In this document: piece by piece, positions 9,195 through 18,624 of the stretch
Numbering within the stretch: position 1 is the first letter of the stretch
How the letters are laid out: the number at the start of each line of letters is the position of its first letter
Source of the DNA: a virus
Taxonomy: Duplodnaviria; Caudoviricetes
DNA length: 24,425 bases
Strand: one strand, 5' to 3'
IMG/VR virus record: IMGVR_UViG_3300017785_000115
Span: 1 to 24,425 of that record
Program-made: the position numbers and the translations under genes
The notes under the pieces: model-generated
Seen by the model: only the letters and a program-made list of their open reading frames with translations
Database searches by the model: none
What the model was told of the DNA's origin: nothing

Positions 9195-9641
9195 TCAAAT
9201 CACCCAAAATTCTTCAAGTTTTGAAAAACCGAACCTGCTGAACTTCAGGTCAGGACTGTTAACCATTTTGCTGATAAACGCATTGCAAATTCTTCCAGCA
9301 TCTTTGAGAGCAATTGCTTCGTCTAAGTATGCTCGTAACAGCCTGTATCCAGCAGTGCTGCCGCGATGTTCAGGTTCAACCCAATATGCAAACTCAGTCA
9401 AAACAAAATGCTTTGGCGACCAAATGCTTGGCATCACTGCCGCAATCATCATCCCCACAGATTTGCCATCAATCTCTGCCAACAAAACAACACCACGACC
9501 AGCAATCAATTCGTTAAGCATCTGCGTGACATATTCGGCATCATTGGCATCTTTCAAAAACTCCAGAGGAGTTTCGCTTCTGTATTGACGCAGCATATCC
9601 AGCACTGCTGGAATGTCAAAACGATTTGCTTTGCGAATCAT
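9195..9641 (-). CDS. GNAT-family N-acetyltransferase
   Basis: 'MIRKANRFDIPAV' start, acetyl-CoA motif A 'YWVEPEHRGSTAGYRLL' and C-terminal 'RFGF'. Coupled to the upstream gene by an ATGA overlap. Confidence 0.85.
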   Translation of the reverse strand: MIRKANRFDIPAVLDMLRQYRSETPLEFLKDANDAEYVTQMLNELIAGRGVVLLAEIDGKSVGMMIAAVMPSIWSPKHFVLTEFAYWVEPEHRGSTAGYRLLRAYLDEAIALKDAGRICNAFISKMVNSPDLKFSRFGFSKLEEFWVI

Positions 9642-10909: not shown

Positions 10910-13339
10910 TTATCGACTCACTGGCATAGACCGTTGTGCAGACTGATTTGCAGACCATACGGCTTGTTTGTTTTTGGCAAGGAATTGAACGGCGCTTTGA
11001 GTGTCAATGGCACTCATGTTTTGGATGATTGGCCCATTGTAGTTAATTGTTTGACCACCCATGCCACCCAAGGCATGGTTAGGAATGATTGTTCCAGCAG
11101 TGCGAGGAACGAACAACTCGGGTCCACGCTCTCCGACAATGCTTGCTTTGCCTACTGGTGGGTCGCCACCATCAGCAAACATTCTGCCGCCGCTGGCTGA
11201 TACAAATTGCGATTGCGTCATGGTCATTGGGGTTGGAAAAAATGAACTAAACAACATTCGCAGCAACGTCATGGCTTGCGCCTTCATCTCAATTGCAATC
11301 AAGTCCCTAATGACACTTGCAGCAAAGTCCTTCATTTTGAACTTGCCGGTTTGTACAAACTTGTCAATGGCAGAACCAAGGTTGCCCCACACCGAATCAA
11401 ACACTTGTTGGGTGCGCTTCATGGAGTCTTCTATCGTCACAAACAAGTTTGCCATTTGTTCTTGACGATCAATCTGGTCAAGATTAAATTGCTTGTCTGG
11501 ACCTTCCTCAACCTCTTTGCGCTTTCTCGCATACTCCAAAGAAATCTGAGCAAGTTTTTGCTCTTTCTCAGTGGCGTAAATCATTTGGCTCTTTAAGTCC
11601 AAGGACTCGCGCTGGTACTCCATCTCTCGCGTCTTGGATTGGTTGGCTGTTCTAATACTTGCAAGCCTGTTTGACTCCGCAACTTCGGCATCAGTAATTT
11701 CTTTTTGTGTGCGGAGATATTCTTCGTACTCTGAGAGCCGATTTTTGTTGCGGATGCTTCTGATTTTTTCATCACGCTTTAACTCTATTGTGTAAATCTC
11801 GGCATCCAACTGTCTTGCAAGCAGCCCACCAAAAGCAAGTTTTTCTTCAGCAGACTTTTTGCTGAACTCAAGGCGCTTTTCTTCAAGTTCTTTAGCCGCT
11901 TCCAATTCAATTTTTTGTATTTCGTTTGCGCCTTCAACGGCAATAAGAAACTCGTTGTTGGCAATCGCTTTGGCAATTGCTGATTCAATTTCTATTTGCT
12001 TGCCAATGCCACCAGCGCCAGAGTAGGCTTTAATTTTTCTTTGTTCTTCTTCTGCCTTTTTGGTTCTTGCCTCTGCCGCATCAAGCGCAGCCATTTCTTT
12101 GCTGACAATAGCGTTTAACTCGGTTCTGAACGAGGCAAGCGCAGCTTCTTGTGAGCCTGTCTTTAAGCCCTTTGCTTGCCTCTTAGAAATTTCATCAGTA
12201 ATCTCATTGATTTTCTTTTCAAGTTCGATGGCTCGGTCAGTTCCGCTTTCACGGCCCCAACCCATCATTGCGTCCCACGCAGAAGATGCAAAATTAGCAA
12301 CGCCTTGCCAAGCCTTTTCCAAATTGCCAAGTTCGCGTTGCGTTGATTTCAAACTTTCGTTGAGCAATGTTGCTTGCAGCTTTGCAGCCTCTTGCAATCT
12401 GCCCTGCTTCTCAAGAGCCTCAATGTTCTTGTATTGCTCAAGCGTAAGGAAATGATATTTGTCGTTCAATTGCTTTGCAGAACTTGCTGTCCCATCAAGC
12501 AAAGGAATCAGTGTTTCAGCGGCTTTTGTGGCATCTACGCCAGCAATCTTGGCAAAGCGCAGCACGACCTCACCAACAGCCTCCATTGAGGTGGATGTAA
12601 ATTTGCCTGATGCCGCCAACTGCTGCATCAAATCTCGGGCATCTCCAATTGATGCGTTTGTTTTGTTTGACAAAACATTGCCGAGGTTCAGCAATTTGTC
12701 ATAAGTTACACCGGCAAATCCACCAGTCAATGTCATTGCGTCCTTGAATTTGTCAAGATCGTCAATTGCTTTGTAAAAGGCGTAACCAACAGTGGCGGCA
12801 GCAGTTCCAATAAGAAGAAGTCCAACCCTAAAAGGGGTAAAAATAGAGCCAATGGCTTTAAACATATTGCCAACACCGCCCATCGCATCCTTCAATTGAC
12901 CACCTTGCTGGATGATGGCAATAAACGGGCTTTGACCAGAAGCGATCTGCGTAAACAAGTCAGTCGTCTGATACGTCAACTGCATCTTCTGTTGCTCGTT
13001 CATTTTGAACTGAGCGCCAGCCATATTCTTCATTGCGTTGGCTTTGGCATCATATGCTGCCGCTTCTTTACGCAACATGTCAATCAAAGTACCTTCAGCA
13101 CGTTGATAACGTCCAGCCTTAATCTCTCGCTCAATTTGCTCAACCTTAGTTAAGGTCTTGCCGTAATCTTCTGTTGCGTAACGCAGCGCAACAAGTTCTT
13201 TTGCGGCATTGTCGGAGTCGCGTTGAATCTGTTTAGCAAAGGAACCAAATTCCTGCTTTGCTTTAGAAATCTTGACTTCAAGTTCTGCCGTATCAACGCC
13301 AAGAACAATACCAAGTCGAGCAATATTCATTGAAGCCAT
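10910..13339 (-). CDS. Tail tape measure protein (lambda-like)
   Basis: 809 aa, alpha-helical and Ala/Glu/Lys-rich. 'TDLFTQIASGQSPFIAIIQQGGQLKD' is the lambda-type TMP motif. C-terminal 'FADGG...IVGERGPELFVP'. Confidence 0.95.
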   Translation of the reverse strand: MASMNIARLGIVLGVDTAELEVKISKAKQEFGSFAKQIQRDSDNAAKELVALRYATEDYGKTLTKVEQIEREIKAGRYQRAEGTLIDMLRKEAAAYDAKANAMKNMAGAQFKMNEQQKMQLTYQTTDLFTQIASGQSPFIAIIQQGGQLKDAMGGVGNMFKAIGSIFTPFRVGLLLIGTAAATVGYAFYKAIDDLDKFKDAMTLTGGFAGVTYDKLLNLGNVLSNKTNASIGDARDLMQQLAASGKFTSTSMEAVGEVVLRFAKIAGVDATKAAETLIPLLDGTASSAKQLNDKYHFLTLEQYKNIEALEKQGRLQEAAKLQATLLNESLKSTQRELGNLEKAWQGVANFASSAWDAMMGWGRESGTDRAIELEKKINEITDEISKRQAKGLKTGSQEAALASFRTELNAIVSKEMAALDAAEARTKKAEEEQRKIKAYSGAGGIGKQIEIESAIAKAIANNEFLIAVEGANEIQKIELEAAKELEEKRLEFSKKSAEEKLAFGGLLARQLDAEIYTIELKRDEKIRSIRNKNRLSEYEEYLRTQKEITDAEVAESNRLASIRTANQSKTREMEYQRESLDLKSQMIYATEKEQKLAQISLEYARKRKEVEEGPDKQFNLDQIDRQEQMANLFVTIEDSMKRTQQVFDSVWGNLGSAIDKFVQTGKFKMKDFAASVIRDLIAIEMKAQAMTLLRMLFSSFFPTPMTMTQSQFVSASGGRMFADGGDPPVGKASIVGERGPELFVPRTAGTIIPNHALGGMGGQTINYNGPIIQNMSAIDTQSAVQFLAKNKQAVWSANQSAQRSMPVSR

Positions 13340-13839
13340 TACTTTCTCCTTGCCGCCATTTTATTCGCATATGCCATCAAATAGGCAGCAAAACTTGTTT
13401 TGAAGTTGCCAACAACTGATTCTGCGTTTTGCTCAATTGCTCTACGCAAAAATGGTTGTGCTGGAATTTTTTTAGTGCCAAACTCTTGAGCCAAAGATAC
13501 AGCACTTCGTTTCACAGATACAACCGCAATAGCTGCATCAGACTGATTCACATGAATTGATTGCATGTCTCGTTTTGTTGGAATTCTTGCATCCAACCGA
13601 ACGGTATCTTTTAAGTGAATTGGGCTTTTTTCTGTTCTAGGCGATGGATCATATGGAGCCGTGGCTCTGACTTGATCCGCAACAGGCGACATCGCATCTT
13701 TTGCCGCCTTGACAATAGTTGCTCTTGCCGCAGTATCGGCACGATGAAAGTCCATCAACTCAGAAAGTTTCGCCTCAAGGTCTTCCAAGCCCTCAACGCG
13801 AAACATTCTATTTTTGCCATCGGGACTCCAAGAGGCCAT
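13339..13839 (-). CDS. HK97 gp10-family tail completion protein
   Basis: 'VEGLEDLEAKL', 'APYD' and 'QEFGTKKIPAQPFLRRA' signature motifs. Confidence 0.85.
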   Translation of the reverse strand: MASWSPDGKNRMFRVEGLEDLEAKLSELMDFHRADTAARATIVKAAKDAMSPVADQVRATAPYDPSPRTEKSPIHLKDTVRLDARIPTKRDMQSIHVNQSDAAIAVVSVKRSAVSLAQEFGTKKIPAQPFLRRAIEQNAESVVGNFKTSFAAYLMAYANKMAARRK

Positions 13840-13840
13840 A

Positions 13841-14185
13841 CTATTCTTTCAGGTAAGCCTCCGAACCCGGTCTAGTAGCCAAGAATGCCATCAACTGCTT
13901 GCTGGCTTGCTCTTGCTGTTGTTCCTTTGTCAGCGGCGGGACAATGTATTCGTGTGTCGATGGAAGAACGTCTTTCATCGTAAACGGTCTTGTCGTCTTC
14001 TGTATTTTCGAGTTTAAATTGCCTGTGGTCAAGGAACTTAGCGCAAGCAGCAGCGCCTTGTTCCCAATCATGCCATCAGACAGCATAATCTCGATATTCC
14101 GCATGTCGTCCACAGGAACATCATCTGGACACCCACCATGAGCGTACACATACGCTCGGGCTTGTAGGTGAATGTCCTGAATTAG
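13841..14185 (-). CDS. Tail assembly chaperone, T-like portion (probably made as a G-T frameshift fusion)
   Basis: The frame of ORF 13841..14149 is open up to the slippery site (LIQDIHLQARAYVYAHGG...). No evident SD before GTG 14149. Confidence 0.7.
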   Translation of the reverse strand, partial: LIQDIHLQARAYVYAHGGCPDDVPVDDMRNIEIMLSDGMIGNKALLLALSSLTTGNLNSKIQKTTRPFTMKDVLPSTHEYIVPPLTKEQQQEQASKQLMAFLATRPGSEAYLKE

Positions 14186-14637
14186 TTTTTTCGAGAATCC
14201 TTATATCCCGGCTGAATTGACTCAGAAATTCTTGCAAGCATTTCAAGTTGAACAGCCGTGGGCCATTCAGCTTCAATGTCTTCGTATGTGATGTCATCAA
14301 GCGTTCCATTCACAGGAACCAACAACTTGATGTACTCCACCACTCGGTTTTCCATTTGCAAAATGGTTTGAACCAATTCCTTGGTGGAGCGCCCTTCAAC
14401 AATCACATCATCGTCAGTGACAACAACACCTTCAACATCCGAGACATTTCGGAAAGTTGAAGTCATTTTGTCAAAACGGATTTTGAATTCAGTTGCATCA
14501 ACTTTATTGATGCGGTCTTGAATGTCATCAAGTTCTTTGGACAGCGGAACACGAACTTTAAATTCGTGACCAGCAAGTTCAAACGTCTTGGTGCGGAGGT
14601 TGGTTGTTTCGCCAAAGGCTGAAGATAGTCTTGTCAT
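14182..14637 (-). CDS. Tail assembly chaperone, G-like
   Basis: Acidic 151-aa protein between the tail tube and TMP genes. It ends in CGA AAA AAC TAA, which contains a slippery heptamer. Confidence 0.75.
   Translation of the reverse strand: MTRLSSAFGETTNLRTKTFELAGHEFKVRVPLSKELDDIQDRINKVDATEFKIRFDKMTSTFRNVSDVEGVVVTDDDVIVEGRSTKELVQTILQMENRVVEYIKLLVPVNGTLDDITYEDIEAEWPTAVQLEMLARISESIQPGYKDSRKN
14185..14191 (-). promoter_or_regulatory. Programmed -1 frameshift site A AAA AAC
   Basis: X XXY YYZ heptamer in the last codons of G. A -1 shift enters the open T frame (14185-14149 = 36 nt, in frame). Confidence 0.8.
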
Positions 14638-14858
14638 GGTCGTGTGGTTTTGATGATCTTGTGATAAATCAACTCGTTCAAGTTGATTGCATAATCTACC
14701 GCCTCAAGTGGCGTTAGCTTGTCTGCGTGATTCCGCGCAATATCGTGGGCAAGAGCAATTGCCGTGATGCGCTGTTGAGTAAACCCAAACCAATTTTTGG
14801 ATGAATCGGATTGGGCTACAAGAAAATTTAGAAGGTCGTTGCTGTCTTTTACTATCAT
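14634..14858 (-). CDS. Hypothetical protein, 74 aa
   Basis: Fits the operon packing, with an ATGA overlap onto the chaperone gene. No recognised motif. Confidence 0.6.
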   Translation of the reverse strand: MIVKDSNDLLNFLVAQSDSSKNWFGFTQQRITAIALAHDIARNHADKLTPLEAVDYAINLNELIYHKIIKTTRP

Positions 14859-14863
14859 GTTTT

Positions 14864-15076
14864 TTACTCTGTTGTGTCTTGTGCAACTTCCTCAATAACC
14901 ACCACAGGGGCAGTTACGTTGTATTTTTTGAGCAGTGCCAAAGCAATAGCTTCAGCAGTGTCTGGTTTGGCTGTGGCTTTTGCAAGTTCAGCAGCGTCCA
15001 CCACCATGCCACGGGCGACAAGATCAATGTCCCCGTAGCTGGTCACAATCGTTTCAATTGCGTCAGTGACTTTCAT
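14864..15076 (-). CDS. Hypothetical protein, 70 aa (MKVTDAIETIV...)
   Basis: The likely start is ATG 15076, in a TGATG overlap with the tube-B stop, rather than 15130. Ala-rich and acidic. Confidence 0.65.
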   Translation of the reverse strand: MKVTDAIETIVTSYGDIDLVARGMVVDAAELAKATAKPDTAEAIALALLKKYNVTAPVVVIEEVAQDTTE

Positions 15077-15594
15077 CAGTTGTTCGACCAGCCGTACTGG
15101 TTGCCTCGCGGATGAACAGTGAAAGTGCATTTGGCTTCAGCACCGGGCTGAGAGTCTATCTGGAACTGGCCTACACGCCCGTTAAAGGCATAAGCAACAG
15201 TGTTTGTACCATCCACAGCAGCCACAACAAATGTGCGGTCTACAGTGCCAGAATAAGCGTCAGAACGGATTTGCAGCAAAGCCGAATCGGAAGGGTTCCA
15301 AGCCGCCGTAATGGTCAAACTTGTTGGAGCCGCCTGAACTGGAATCTTGTCGCTTTGACGAGAACCGGCAACACTGAAACTTGCCACCGCATCGTCCATG
15401 CCGAAAGCAGGGATTGCTTCAACAGGAACAGCAACACCAGCAGCGCCAGTGCCGTTTGCAGAAGTGCCAACAATGGTTGTGACTTGAGCCAGCCAAACGG
15501 ACAAGTTAGCAGTGGTCAATGGAGTTGGAGTTGCAGCCGATTGCATCCACAGCGAGGTGCTAAAACCGGGAAGAACTTTTGTTGGGATCGCCAT
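15076..15594 (-). CDS. Major tail tube protein, paralog B
   Basis: 172 aa, beta-rich; 'TSLTITAAWNPSD', 'YAFNGRVGQF', 'AKCTFTVHPRG' fit the tube fold. Strong TAAGGAG SD. Confidence 0.8.
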   Translation of the reverse strand: MAIPTKVLPGFSTSLWMQSAATPTPLTTANLSVWLAQVTTIVGTSANGTGAAGVAVPVEAIPAFGMDDAVASFSVAGSRQSDKIPVQAAPTSLTITAAWNPSDSALLQIRSDAYSGTVDRTFVVAAVDGTNTVAYAFNGRVGQFQIDSQPGAEAKCTFTVHPRGNQYGWSNN

Positions 15595-15603
15595 GTCAAC
15601 TCC

Positions 15604-16098
15604 TTAGACGTTGTTGGACCAACCGTACTGGTTGCCACGGGGGTGAATCGTAAAGGTGCATTTTGCTTCAGCGCCGGGTTGAGAATCAATTTGGAATTGA
15701 CCAACACGCCCGTTGAATGCGTAGTACACAATGTTTGCGCCTTCGGTGGCAGAAACCACGAAAGTGCGATCAATCACGCCAGAATAGGCATCTGCCCTCA
15801 TTAACAGCAAGTTGGTGTCGGAAGGGTTCCAAGCAGCAACAATGGTCATGCTGGTGGGCGCTGCTTGCACAGGGATTTTGTCCGATTGACGAGAACCGGC
15901 AACGCTAAAACTTGCAACAGCGTCATCCATGCCAAAAGCGGGAATTGCCTCAACAGGAAGCAAATTGCCTACAACAGCAATGGGAGAAACCGAGGCAACC
16001 AAAGACAACTGTGCAGTAGTCAAAGGAGTTGGCGTAGCGGTTGGCTGTGCGTATAGCGCAGCACTAAAACCGGGCAAGACTTTGTTTGGTAAGGCCAT
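15604..16098 (-). CDS. Major tail tube protein, paralog A
   Basis: 164 aa, directly after the tail terminator gene. About 75% identical to paralog B by hand alignment. AAGGA SD. Confidence 0.8.
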   Translation of the reverse strand: MALPNKVLPGFSAALYAQPTATPTPLTTAQLSLVASVSPIAVVGNLLPVEAIPAFGMDDAVASFSVAGSRQSDKIPVQAAPTSMTIVAAWNPSDTNLLLMRADAYSGVIDRTFVVSATEGANIVYYAFNGRVGQFQIDSQPGAEAKCTFTIHPRGNQYGWSNNV

Positions 16099-16124
16099 TT
16101 TGAGTATCCTTCAAAAGTTGAACA

Positions 16125-16152
16125 ATTGTCTTATATTAGGCTGGAATGTCAA
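16125..16152 (-). promoter_or_regulatory. Candidate promoter for the tail-tube genes: TTGACA-16-GACAAT, containing motif copy 2 (AATATAAGACAAT, 16137-16125)
   Basis: Consensus -35 TTGACA (16152-16147), 16-nt spacer, -10-like GACAAT (16130-16125) ending 26 nt before the ATG. Confidence 0.6.
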
Positions 16153-16555
16153 TGGTGCAATCCAAATAGATTTGCGCCATTTTTTCCTCGTTGTTGTAAC
16201 TGTTGTAAAGCCACATGACATCTGCTTTTGAGATGTAAAATCCATCTGCCGGGCTTCCCAACAATCCACTGTATCCATGCAGGGACTGCAAAATCTGATT
16301 CGATATTGTAAAACCATCTTCAATCTGTTGAGTGAAAATAGAAATCTGAAATATCGGTCTGTCGATTCCCTTGTTGCTTTGCTGCGTTCCCGTATAAACC
16401 GGCTGATGCACGTTTCGTAGCATCCAAGTAATGAATTTGGGCTGCGTTGAAAAATTGCGGTTAAAAGCGGCATAAACGGGCACAGGCGTGACAATGTTTT
16501 CCAGTTGGTACTGGATAGCCTTGCCATAAACAACAGGGTTTAATTGAGTTGCCAT
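16136..16555 (-). CDS. Tail terminator / completion protein (gpU-like position)
   Basis: 139 aa, 'FQISIF...ILQSLHGYSG' pattern. Immediately upstream of the tube genes. Confidence 0.7.
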   Translation of the reverse strand: MATQLNPVVYGKAIQYQLENIVTPVPVYAAFNRNFSTQPKFITWMLRNVHQPVYTGTQQSNKGIDRPIFQISIFTQQIEDGFTISNQILQSLHGYSGLLGSPADGFYISKADVMWLYNSYNNEEKMAQIYLDCTIDIPA

Positions 16556-16899
16556 TACACCGCCGTAACAGGGTCAGAACGATAACAGGTAAACAGCACC
16601 GTCATGCGATCATCCGACTCGCGCACATTGTCAATTCGCCAATCCTTACCGCGCCATGTAATTGAGTACAGGTCTTGACTGTCCATAATCGTTTTCATGT
16701 TTCGCGTGTAATTCAGCGTGAATGTCGTCATGTCTTGATAAAGCCGATATTTATCAGCAATCTTTAGGCTGTTGGCAACGGCAGCAACCCGAGCGCGAGT
16801 CGCAAACCACAATGTTTGCGTTGTCGATTGCTCACCAAAATCAGACTTGCCAAAAGTCAAGTTGTTGATGTTGATGTTCTCAAAACGAGCAATTGCCAT
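16555..16899 (-). CDS. Head closure / head-tail adaptor (SPP1 gp16-like)
   Basis: 114 aa, 'DFGEQ' and 'ITWRGKDWRIDNV' motifs; synteny. Confidence 0.75.
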   Translation of the reverse strand: MAIARFENININNLTFGKSDFGEQSTTQTLWFATRARVAAVANSLKIADKYRLYQDMTTFTLNYTRNMKTIMDSQDLYSITWRGKDWRIDNVRESDDRMTVLFTCYRSDPVTAV

Positions 16900-16906
16900 T
16901 TTGTGC

Positions 16907-17578
16907 TCACATTACGAGGGGTTTGTAACTGCGTAAAAGCGTTGTCACGCCAAACGGAATGTCTTTCAATTTTGTCTCTGTCGCATTGGCTCGGTTGTTG
17001 TACAAGTGAGTCAGCAAAAGCAAGCCAGCCTGTTTAATCACAGGATAATTTGCCAATGGATTTGCAACAGTTGAATATTCCACAATGATTGGCGCAGACA
17101 TCACCGAATTCACATCAGTCGGCAAATTATTTACGATGACTTTATTACCCGAGGCATCGTAAAAATAATTGGTGTTTGTAATCGTTTGGAACACTGGCGG
17201 GAAAGCATCGTTCCAATAACCAACCGAATTAATTGTCACACCAGAAAGTGCCGGGTTTGTGTTTTGACTGACTTCAGGAAGATCAAGACTGATTGGTGAC
17301 GCTACAAGGCTCTCAGAACCGTACCAGACGCGATAAGTTACCGGGAGGATAGACATCCCCAAGTAATCCTCAATCGCCTGTCTGGTGGCGATTCCAAGGC
17401 TTGCAATGTATGTGTCCTGACTTGTATCGTCAAACAAGTTCAGTTGGTTGGTCATTTCATCAAGCGTCAACCATGCTGTCGAACTATCTCGTCCAATCTG
17501 CTCAACCTTTGCATAGTTGAACGGATTGCGTGTTTGCGCCCCAAAAGGCGCAGCGTATTGATAGTTGTCAACGCTCAT
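16907..17578 (-). CDS. Head-tail connector (HK97 gp6 / SPP1 gp15-like, long form)
   Basis: 'LTLDEMTNQL', 'AIEDYLG' and 'IKQAGLLLLTHLYNNR...IPFGVTTLLRSYK'. Confidence 0.88.
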   Translation of the reverse strand: MSVDNYQYAAPFGAQTRNPFNYAKVEQIGRDSSTAWLTLDEMTNQLNLFDDTSQDTYIASLGIATRQAIEDYLGMSILPVTYRVWYGSESLVASPISLDLPEVSQNTNPALSGVTINSVGYWNDAFPPVFQTITNTNYFYDASGNKVIVNNLPTDVNSVMSAPIIVEYSTVANPLANYPVIKQAGLLLLTHLYNNRANATETKLKDIPFGVTTLLRSYKPLVM

Positions 17579-17580
17579 GT

Positions 17581-18624
17581 TTAAGTCTCAATTGAACGAA
17601 CACCAGCAAAAACGTCACGCACAGAACTGACCATACGCTTTTCAGCATACATGGTCACAAAACCGGGCGTTGTCTGTTCCATTGCCTGAATGGTCATTTC
17701 TTCCACATCAGCAATGGTCATAAAACGAGGCCAGTTGGCAAGGTACATTGACTTGCAACCAACAACACCTGTTGCGTCCAAATATGGGTTTGGAATCACC
17801 GGGAATCCAAATACATGAAGCAACGAACCGGCTTCAGCGGAGCCAATGTCAATGAACGAGTAGCCGCCACTGCCGTGAGCATAGTTACGCAGGGTTTGAA
17901 TGGCTGTTGGGTGCATCATCCAAGCAGTACCCGGCATAGACCAGTATTGCGCTGGCAGAGCATTTGCCATTGCAGACAATGTTTCCGCTTCAAGGCCACC
18001 AGTGTTGTTGTACCCCACGGTAGCCAAAGTGTGCAAGCCGTTTGTAATCGCTGTGCCGCTTGTACCAAACGCAGCGGTTGCACCAGCAGCGCCGGGGTAG
18101 CTATTTAGGCCGCGCAAGCCATCAGTGCCACCAGTGGAGGTAGTGACTGAACCGGCTTGGTCATTGTTGAGGCCACACGATGCGCCCTCAAGTTGGGCAA
18201 ATTCCATCATTAGGTCTTCGACCAATTCGGCGTTCAGTCCATTGACATCCGACAGAACAGCCGAACGAACGGGCAATTGTGCAGAAATCACGCGAGTTGG
18301 CAATTGCCAAATGCTTGTGTTGATGTTGGGTGAACCACTGTTGGGGTTGACTGTGTAGCCCCAAGGGTTTGTGCTGTTTGCAGCGTTACCAGTTTTGCAG
18401 ACAAACTGAACAGCAGAATTTCCGGGTACTTTGATGTTTCGTGCGCCTTGACGAAACGGGTTGGCATATCGCAGGGCAGCAAATGCTTCATCAAAGTGAG
18501 TGCGACCACCGACATTCAAGCCTGAACCAGTGATGGCAGATGCCTCGCGCAAGTCAATCGTGACTCTATCGCCAGTTTCCAATGTTTGCTTAATTCCAGA
18601 CAGGATGCGTTCGGTGATGGTCAT
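17581..18624 (-). CDS. Second HK97-fold capsid protein (minor capsid paralog with a short N-terminal leader)
   Basis: 347 aa, colinear with the upstream MCP (GGRT, TSIWQL, NNDQA, GGT.GLRGL, AAFGTSGT, GLH.LAT, EKR...SVRD..AGVR). HK97 motifs 'AWMMHP' and 'FGFPVIPNPYL'. Own AGGA SD. Confidence 0.9.
   Translation of the reverse strand: MTITERILSGIKQTLETGDRVTIDLREASAITGSGLNVGGRTHFDEAFAALRYANPFRQGARNIKVPGNSAVQFVCKTGNAANSTNPWGYTVNPNSGSPNINTSIWQLPTRVISAQLPVRSAVLSDVNGLNAELVEDLMMEFAQLEGASCGLNNDQAGSVTTSTGGTDGLRGLNSYPGAAGATAAFGTSGTAITNGLHTLATVGYNNTGGLEAETLSAMANALPAQYWSMPGTAWMMHPTAIQTLRNYAHGSGGYSFIDIGSAEAGSLLHVFGFPVIPNPYLDATGVVGCKSMYLANWPRFMTIADVEEMTIQAMEQTTPGFVTMYAEKRMVSSVRDVFAGVRSIET

Follow-up and report, generated by a model that had tools for sequence, protein, structure and literature searches.

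Tandem tail-tube paralogs with matched cores in a siphophage-type genome may co-assemble into one tube

The window, by which we mean the whole 24,425-nt stretch of DNA analysed here, contains the minus-strand structural operon of a tailed phage, as judged from gene order and family matches. Its head part runs through terminase, portal, protease, major capsid protein, a second capsid-fold gene, adaptor and head closure. The tail part comprises a probable tail terminator (16136-16555; named by position, with no family match), the two tube genes A and B, two small orphans, a probable tail assembly chaperone pair (151 and 102 aa, 13841-14637; named by position) and a Neck1-like gene, and the distal part holds an 809-aa tape measure protein (TMP; 10910-13339), tip genes and lysis genes. 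Gene A (15604-16098) encodes a short form of the tail tube protein (164 aa) and gene B (15076-15594) a long form (172 aa); a 70-aa orphan gene without a family match (14864-15076) is coupled to B through TGATG. All genes, gene segments and the A-B junction given by window coordinates lie on the minus strand. The pair sits between the neck genes and the chaperone/TMP genes, as expected for a siphophage tube, and none of the 28 window proteins scanned matched a sheath family. The sequencing runs that contain the stretch are mostly freshwater metagenomes, and the four GTDB matches are MAG contigs of mixed taxa.

B matches phrog_158 "major tail protein" (E 2.8e-6), and the AlphaFold models of A and B (pLDDT 87-88) both have a beta-sandwich tube fold with a flanking helix and a long beta2-beta3 loop. 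Foldseek matched the models to lambda gpV-type tubes (E 6e-7 to 4e-5), VIA gave Z 10-11 against the GTA, SPP1 and 80alpha tubes, and the Atlas neighbours are Phage_TTP_11/12/16. A PDB sequence search with a two-sequence profile found no match; with a 61-sequence profile it returned weak matches to the T1 and FCWL1 tubes (E 0.01-0.03). The best fold matches, lambda gpV and YDC107 (PDB 7T2E, 8K36, 9MFE; E 6e-7 to 1e-5, TM ~0.65-0.7), have a single tube domain like A and B but are encoded by one gene, form homohexameric rings and are 12-15% identical, and lambda adds a C-terminal Ig domain. Altogether, the models indicate that this siphophage-type genome encodes two intact tail-tube paralogs, A and B, with the lambda gpV fold.

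The earlier note on this DNA had placed the two proteins at about 75% identity by hand alignment, and this holds: 127 of 163 aligned residues are the same (78%; 73% over 173 columns). The invariant blocks of 36, 25 and 12 aa that it described are present, as is a further run of 9 aa. The 36-aa block (A48-83, 15850-15957; B57-92, 15319-15426) spans beta2 and the beta2-beta3 stacking loop, and the 25-aa block (A126-150, 15649-15723; B135-159, 15118-15192) spans beta5.2-beta6.1 of the inner barrel. B's nine extra residues align as one at B35 and eight at B43-50, within the long-form beta1-beta2 loop (B34-50, 15445-15495), which consists of a W34 helix plus GTxANGTG and is predicted to lie on the outer surface. 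At the junction (15595-15606), A's TAA is followed by 9 nt and the ATG of B, in frame in the window; the SD motif TAAGGAG sits 5 nt upstream of that ATG and overlaps the stop codon, and the window has no terminator-like site between the genes.

The pair is the largest direct repeat of the window (300 nt, 74%, spacing 531). Between A and B, pS is 0.75 and pN 0.034 in the core, and overall dS is 2.2 and dN 0.17. Because synonymous change is saturated and protein change small, above all in the core, this is an old duplication under selection, as the earlier note had proposed, and purifying selection acts on both genes (across 63 disjoint pairs, dN/dS is 0.092 in A and 0.088 in B). An assembly artefact is excluded, again in line with that note: a single contig from run X1, which may be the source sample, covers 14600-18382 with 4 differences, and 178 distinct loci among the matches listed carry the same A-then-B pair. 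Among these matches, the order is A then B in 134/134 two-copy loci. For expression from RNA, the assembled contigs of run X15 cover parts of both genes, although contigs neither establish transcription nor allow genes to be ranked; contigs show presence only, and there was no clean A-B deletion joint among the contig matches listed. One relative (L071:733-1270) has an intact A but a B broken into overlapping frames of 117 and 63 aa, either through sequencing error or by natural loss of B.

To place the pair among its relatives, we assembled 384 loci from five viral-contig scans, one genome scan and phage P19250A; each scan contributed its best 80 matches to a chosen query, and the locus counts are not population frequencies. 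Among these matches and the window, 227 have two tube gene copies, 156 have one and 2 have the gene in pieces. Once loci with identical tube DNA were dropped, the distinct loci among the matches listed comprised 178 A+B, 51 short-only (P19250A among them) and 56 C-only, plus 26 lacking enough flank for a class call and 2 broken. C is a long sister form of 172-176 aa that stands alone in these loci; its core is ~61% identical to those of A and B. The best 80 metagenome loci include 74 two-copy loci, 4 cut at the contig end and 2 that are B-type-only. These two, L390 and L418, are near-identical to each other; their lone tube gene is long, has a core of A/B type and lies within a complete gene order.

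Methylophilaceae phage P19250A (KX815270.1), termed a siphovirus in the accessible text of 10.1101/2020.04.27.064238, is the sole relative among 50,697 GenBank phage records. Its gene 10 (APC43895.1, annotated hypothetical) is a lone 165-aa tube gene 70% identical to A. P19250A resembles the window in its gene set, near-identical terminase-to-tip order and two capsid-fold genes, and differs in an earlier Neck1-like gene, the short tube gene standing alone and a TMP of 594 vs 809 aa. Thus single-copy relatives are common (short-only, C-only, B-type-only and P19250A), which by the earlier note's own reckoning speaks against an obligate heteromer. Each form occurs alone in the family, so a mutual need of the obligate Hcp2-Hcp3 type does not hold at family level, and B, missing from the 51 short-only loci and P19250A, is no universal partner of the main tube gene. 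Short-only, long-only and two-gene tails all occur, and the A+B pair does one tube gene's job. The single-copy genes were also considered as A/B recombinant hybrids and rejected: across 16 diagnostic columns in the 51 short-only genes, none is nearer B than A in the helix-beta5.1 segment, with three ties. One distant short-only member (L225:8001-8495) lies in the 229-kb contig JBAQTC010000002.1 of a Burkholderiaceae MAG, a possible prophage and a possible hint at the host.

In a tree built from the neighboring terminator, chaperone and Neck1 genes (107 rows), A+B, short-only and C cassettes are interleaved, and its starred branches force at least 10 (A+B), 5 (short-only) and 8 (C) changes. Sister A+B and C genomes share terminators (78-86%), chaperones (71-84%) and similar TMP lengths. 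L093 (A+B) and L350 (C), for example, have terminators 86% and TMPs 72% identical and TMP lengths of 811 vs 806, and the L350 C protein is only 58-60% identical to A or B. Dit is replaced between some swapped sisters (29-35% identity). The 70-aa orphan is present in 145/161 A+B, 35/49 A-only, 0/56 C-only and 0/2 B-type-only loci among the matches listed; it accompanies A-containing cassettes, and could be hitch-hiking in the swapped cassette or be a partner of the A outer sheet.

We assigned inside and outside from the strand order of the models and published tube topology rather than from ring coordinates. In the accessible part of that description (PMC8718954), the inner sheet is formed by beta2, beta3, beta6.1 and beta5.2, with the beta2-beta3 loop stacking the rings, and the outer sheet by beta1, beta4, beta5.1 and beta6.2 plus the helix. 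Between 45 A and 42 B representatives, the diagnostic columns fall in the N-arm (position 3), beta1 (Y16W, A17M), the beta1-beta2 loop (B30-54, in which W34, Q37 and GTxANGTG are nearly invariant in B), the helix (B105), beta4 (B127), beta5.1 (B132, B134) and the final residue. The stacking loop and strands beta2, beta3, beta5.2 and beta6 are free of them. The fixed A/B differences are therefore all predicted to lie in outer elements, chiefly the conserved helix-loop of B. Of the interface argument made earlier, the part that stands is that ring and stacking elements appear conserved between A and B. The pb6-like part does not: this topology mapping found no complementary, crossed A/B differences in those elements. 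Form C has most of B's outer signature, including the B34-50 loop. Two distant long-form homologs, P0122 and P0128 (234 and 257 aa), were rejected as fusions, their extra length being ~60-85 aa inserted in the beta1-beta2 loop, and insertions of this size fit an exposed site. A search for the genomic partners of P0122 and P0128 yielded ordinary tube forms only. With C assumed as the root and most of the distant full-length homologs long, the long form looks ancestral and A a shortened derivative.

Although their exteriors differ, the cores of A and B change in step. Among 61 representative pairs, same-genome A-B identity in two core segments is 0.93 and 0.91, compared with 0.85 and 0.84 when A is set against B from another genome and 0.85 and 0.81 when it is set against A. 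Non-core columns show no comparable excess (0.45 within vs 0.44 across genomes). At three polymorphic core columns, A equals B in 61/61 genomes (expected 0.60-0.64), and the 36-aa block is likewise matched genome by genome. We also counted paired changes in 76 disjoint close genome pairs, which were chosen on outer columns and whose independence by kinship is incomplete. Here 146 core columns changed in both genes; 117 of these involved one and the same pair of residues, and in 108 the change agreed between A and B of each genome. In 500 permutations stratified by divergence, the null for the last two counts averaged 76 and 43 and never exceeded 91 and 57. For the outer columns the three counts were 100, 34 and 24, with null averages of 74 and 23 for the first and last; paired change is thus slightly in excess there too. 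The gene trees suggested by the earlier note give a split answer: the non-core tree separates A from B (SH-aLRT 98), and the core-only tree mixes them (18 and 16 label changes) and, with few columns and many open forks, groups A with its own B in many lineages. In one subclade the A core has drifted from that of B (identity 0.80-0.87), and the weaker match lies partly at outer beta5.1/beta6.2 positions included in the column-based "core".

Recent gene conversion was rejected as the source of this matching, there being no surplus of identical runs or codons. Identical DNA runs between same-genome A and B show no excess length, four-fold sites differ at 0.60-0.64 within vs 0.65-0.68 across genomes, and codon identity flanking paired changes is 0.57 vs a background of 0.54 +/- 0.19. 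Between genomes that are 93-94% identical, there are examples of the same substitution in A and B made with different codons. Old gene conversion is a possible source, synonymous sites being saturated even between genomes, and neutral conversion would match cores without co-assembly. Shared third partners do not force the match, because C, with a different core, works with a similar terminator, chaperone and TMP. Contact between A and B would be the simplest selective cause of the matched cores.

As a proxy for abundance, we used a codon score trained on major capsid vs low-copy genes, with leave-one-out, in 68 thinned genomes, 34 of them A+B. The major capsid gene scored 0.253, A 0.136 and B 0.123 (A vs B p 0.18, 34 genomes), and sole tube genes 0.127 (short) and 0.166 (long). 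Lower scores were found for portal (0.076), Dit (0.038), head closure (0.028) and terminator (-0.031; B vs terminator p 1e-10). The mean SD match was 5.6 for B vs 4.9 for A. By these proxies, A and B are probably expressed at similar, high levels, much as the earlier note supposed, and both codon bias and SD argue against a single-ring role for B.

With one broken TMP dropped (L212, 360 aa), median TMP lengths are 598 aa in short-only loci (n=24, 23/24 <=668), 806 in A+B loci (648-995, n=63) and 797 in C loci (n=20); after kinship control, the relation of tube form to TMP length has p 0.25 with 5 independent pairs. A link between tail length and bracing by the long form is thus a lead, not a result. 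A rule of thumb gives ~0.15 nm of tail per TMP residue and 4 nm per ring, by which we take the window's tail to have ~30 rings.

Siphophage tubes are usually modelled as single-protein polymers. On balance, with slightly better than even confidence, we favor a reading in which A and B co-polymerise into one non-contractile tube without fixed ratio or pattern, that is, a non-stoichiometric two-subunit tube. One transcript would yield A and B in large, similar amounts, as SD coupling and codon bias suggest, and the two would substitute for each other in TMP-templated polymerisation. They would be interchangeable because they do not differ in the elements for ring formation (beta2/beta5.2) and stacking (beta2-beta3 loop), and their cores would stay matched through selection for mutual fit. 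In the weakest step of this scheme, the mixed shaft would show two outer surfaces, with B adding a larger outer helix-loop. The long form would most likely brace the tube, since short-only phages nearly all have short TMPs, and the outer sheet of A would stay open, perhaps to receive the linked 70-aa protein. B alone is rare (two mutually similar loci among the matches listed), so it may need A in the phages that have both. What remains of the heteromer first proposed is selected duplication, conserved interfaces and probable co-assembly; an obligate A3B3 ring, a split pb6 and read-through drop out.

A fuller version of this reading, which we put forward only tentatively, is a composition-tunable two-gene tail. 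Here the paralogs would co-polymerise along the whole shaft, with parallel substitution rather than DNA conversion keeping the interfaces identical. The proportion of A to B, perhaps arranged in a pattern of single rings or of blocks, would set stiffness and surface chemistry and so allow longer tails, and the A+B cassette would swap freely with single-gene ones throughout a freshwater phage group that is abundant.

The closest functional parallel is SPP1, whose tube contains gp17.1 and gp17.1* at 3:1 and is viable with the short form alone, according to the accessible text of PMC7666168. As is predicted for A and B, the two SPP1 forms share a tube core and differ in their exteriors (PMC7666168, PMC8718954, both as accessible). 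In SPP1, however, one gene with a frameshift supplies core identity for free and adds a C-terminal FN3 domain, whereas A and B each have a complete gene and an SD, evolution holds the two cores matched, and the difference lies in an internal loop and outer-sheet residues. As part of the mixed-tube reading, and at the same slightly favorable odds, A and B would work like the SPP1 mix yet fall outside that kind, with two genes replacing the frameshift.

Positional or segmental use is unlikely; here one paralog would supply the tip or neck end, as a block or as one or a few rings, and the other the shaft. It has precedents in the Pvc7-Pvc5-Pvc1 order of PVC (PMC12546770) and in T5 p140 (PMC10038345), tube paralogs that are encoded separately, as A and B are, and that occur together in one particle. 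The nearly invariant loop of B resembles a docking site, A+B TMPs are longer than short-only ones, and a single ring would also need a core matched to A. However, as far as the accessible parts of those sources describe them, Pvc5 and p140 are single positional rings, and p140 is 9% identical to pb6, whereas B is 78% identical to A and missing in many relatives. The codon bias of B is that of a major protein, equal to A's and far above that of single-ring genes, and its SD is equal to or stronger than A's. Single-gene relatives, moreover, have a similar terminator, chaperones and TMP, and no B-specific collar-like gene was seen between the tube and TMP genes.

We regard as distinctly unlikely an ordered heteromer of A3B3 rings or strictly alternating A6/B6 rings, whether it is likened to a T5 pb6 divided into two genes or to Hcp2-Hcp3. 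Similar inferred expression, matched cores and the constant A-then-B order would suit it, and the outer loops could impose order. Obligate tube-fold heterohexamers do exist: in the Bacteroidales T6SS, Hcp2 and Hcp3 (PDB 9VND) are tube-fold paralogs that share one ring and, in the accessible text of PMC13035841, are specialised at effector-binding interfaces. A and B, by contrast, are predicted to share their lumen and ring interfaces and to differ on the exterior, and the short-only, long-sister-only and B-type-only loci imply homo-tubes of both forms. T5 pb6 is likewise a tandem-encoded pair of tube domains, but it is a single fused chain in trimeric rings (PMC8718954, accessible part), whereas A and B are unfused and each occurs alone in relatives. 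The suggested split pb6 counterpart fails on these grounds, its domains not being always paired and neither fused relatives nor complementary interfaces having been seen among the loci and columns compared. Complex prediction for A3B3 gave ipSAE 0.29, 0.36 and 0.07 vs a mark of 0.32, with controls not folded, and we let it weigh neither way.

That A and B do not functionally co-assemble, forming separate tails and with them two virion types, or being used one protein at a time while occasional gene conversion homogenises their cores, seems improbable to us. Tandem DNA that is 74% identical invites recombination, saturated synonymous sites would hide old conversion, and each form can be the sole tube gene. 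Against this are the lack of surplus identical DNA runs or flanking codon identity and the paired changes made with different codons between close genomes, and identical polymerising surfaces in one cell give segregation no evident basis.

Programmed read-through of the A stop into a pb6-like A-B fusion is very doubtful: the genes are in frame in the window and in 36/61 representative pairs (spacers 8-16 nt), but 25/61 are out of frame, 4 of the 36 in-frame pairs contain a second stop, A ends in TAA in 57/61, the 9-nt spacer is accounted for by the overlap of the SD with the A stop, no tube ORF exceeds 176 aa in the fetched loci among the matches listed, and a search for natural fusions, weak evidence by the tool's own note, found no homolog of 288-2000 aa.

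If co-assembly is correct, the result is a variation on known tube biology and not a new machine. Known mixed tubes, as far as the accessible sources describe them, arise by frameshift (SPP1) or as single positional rings (T5 p140, Pvc5). In the searched literature, mostly non-subscription and accessible in part, we found neither concerted evolution of tube paralogs nor a siphophage in which separate genes encode two major tube proteins that are closely related. A and B offer a clear case of paralogs with a shared polymer interface evolving in step. A large natural series, in which the short form, the long form or both serve on similar scaffolds and one member, P19250A, is cultured, makes the effect of the exterior on stiffness, length and adsorption testable, and formerly hypothetical proteins of an abundant freshwater family are now annotated as tube proteins.

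Several neighboring features were recorded in passing. An internal promoter at 16152-16125 was rejected as a conserved feature, the pattern occurring in 3/45 A, 0/21 short-only and 0/25 C representatives. The first probable chaperone gene ends in CGAAAAAACTAA (14182-14196), with an A-run before the stop that recurs in many relatives and may be a lambda G/GT-type frameshift site. The Neck1/HK97-gp10-like gene (13339-13839) lies between the chaperones and TMP in the window and precedes the chaperones in other relatives, and both orders occur in all three tube architectures. A GNAT acetyltransferase gene (9195-9641) lies in the tail-tip module between hub-like and J-like tip genes and keeps this position in relatives. 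The second HK97-fold capsid gene (17581-18624) encodes 347 aa that are 43% identical to the 449-aa major capsid protein and lack its N-terminal part; it has an intermediate codon bias (0.11) and is preceded by a strong terminator-like hairpin (18674-18653). By analogy with Nocturne116 (PMC13595954, accessible part), it is a candidate for a dedicated vertex (penton) protein. Of 165 loci having both flanks, 164 have two or more capsid-fold ORFs between the protease and adaptor genes, and so does P19250A.
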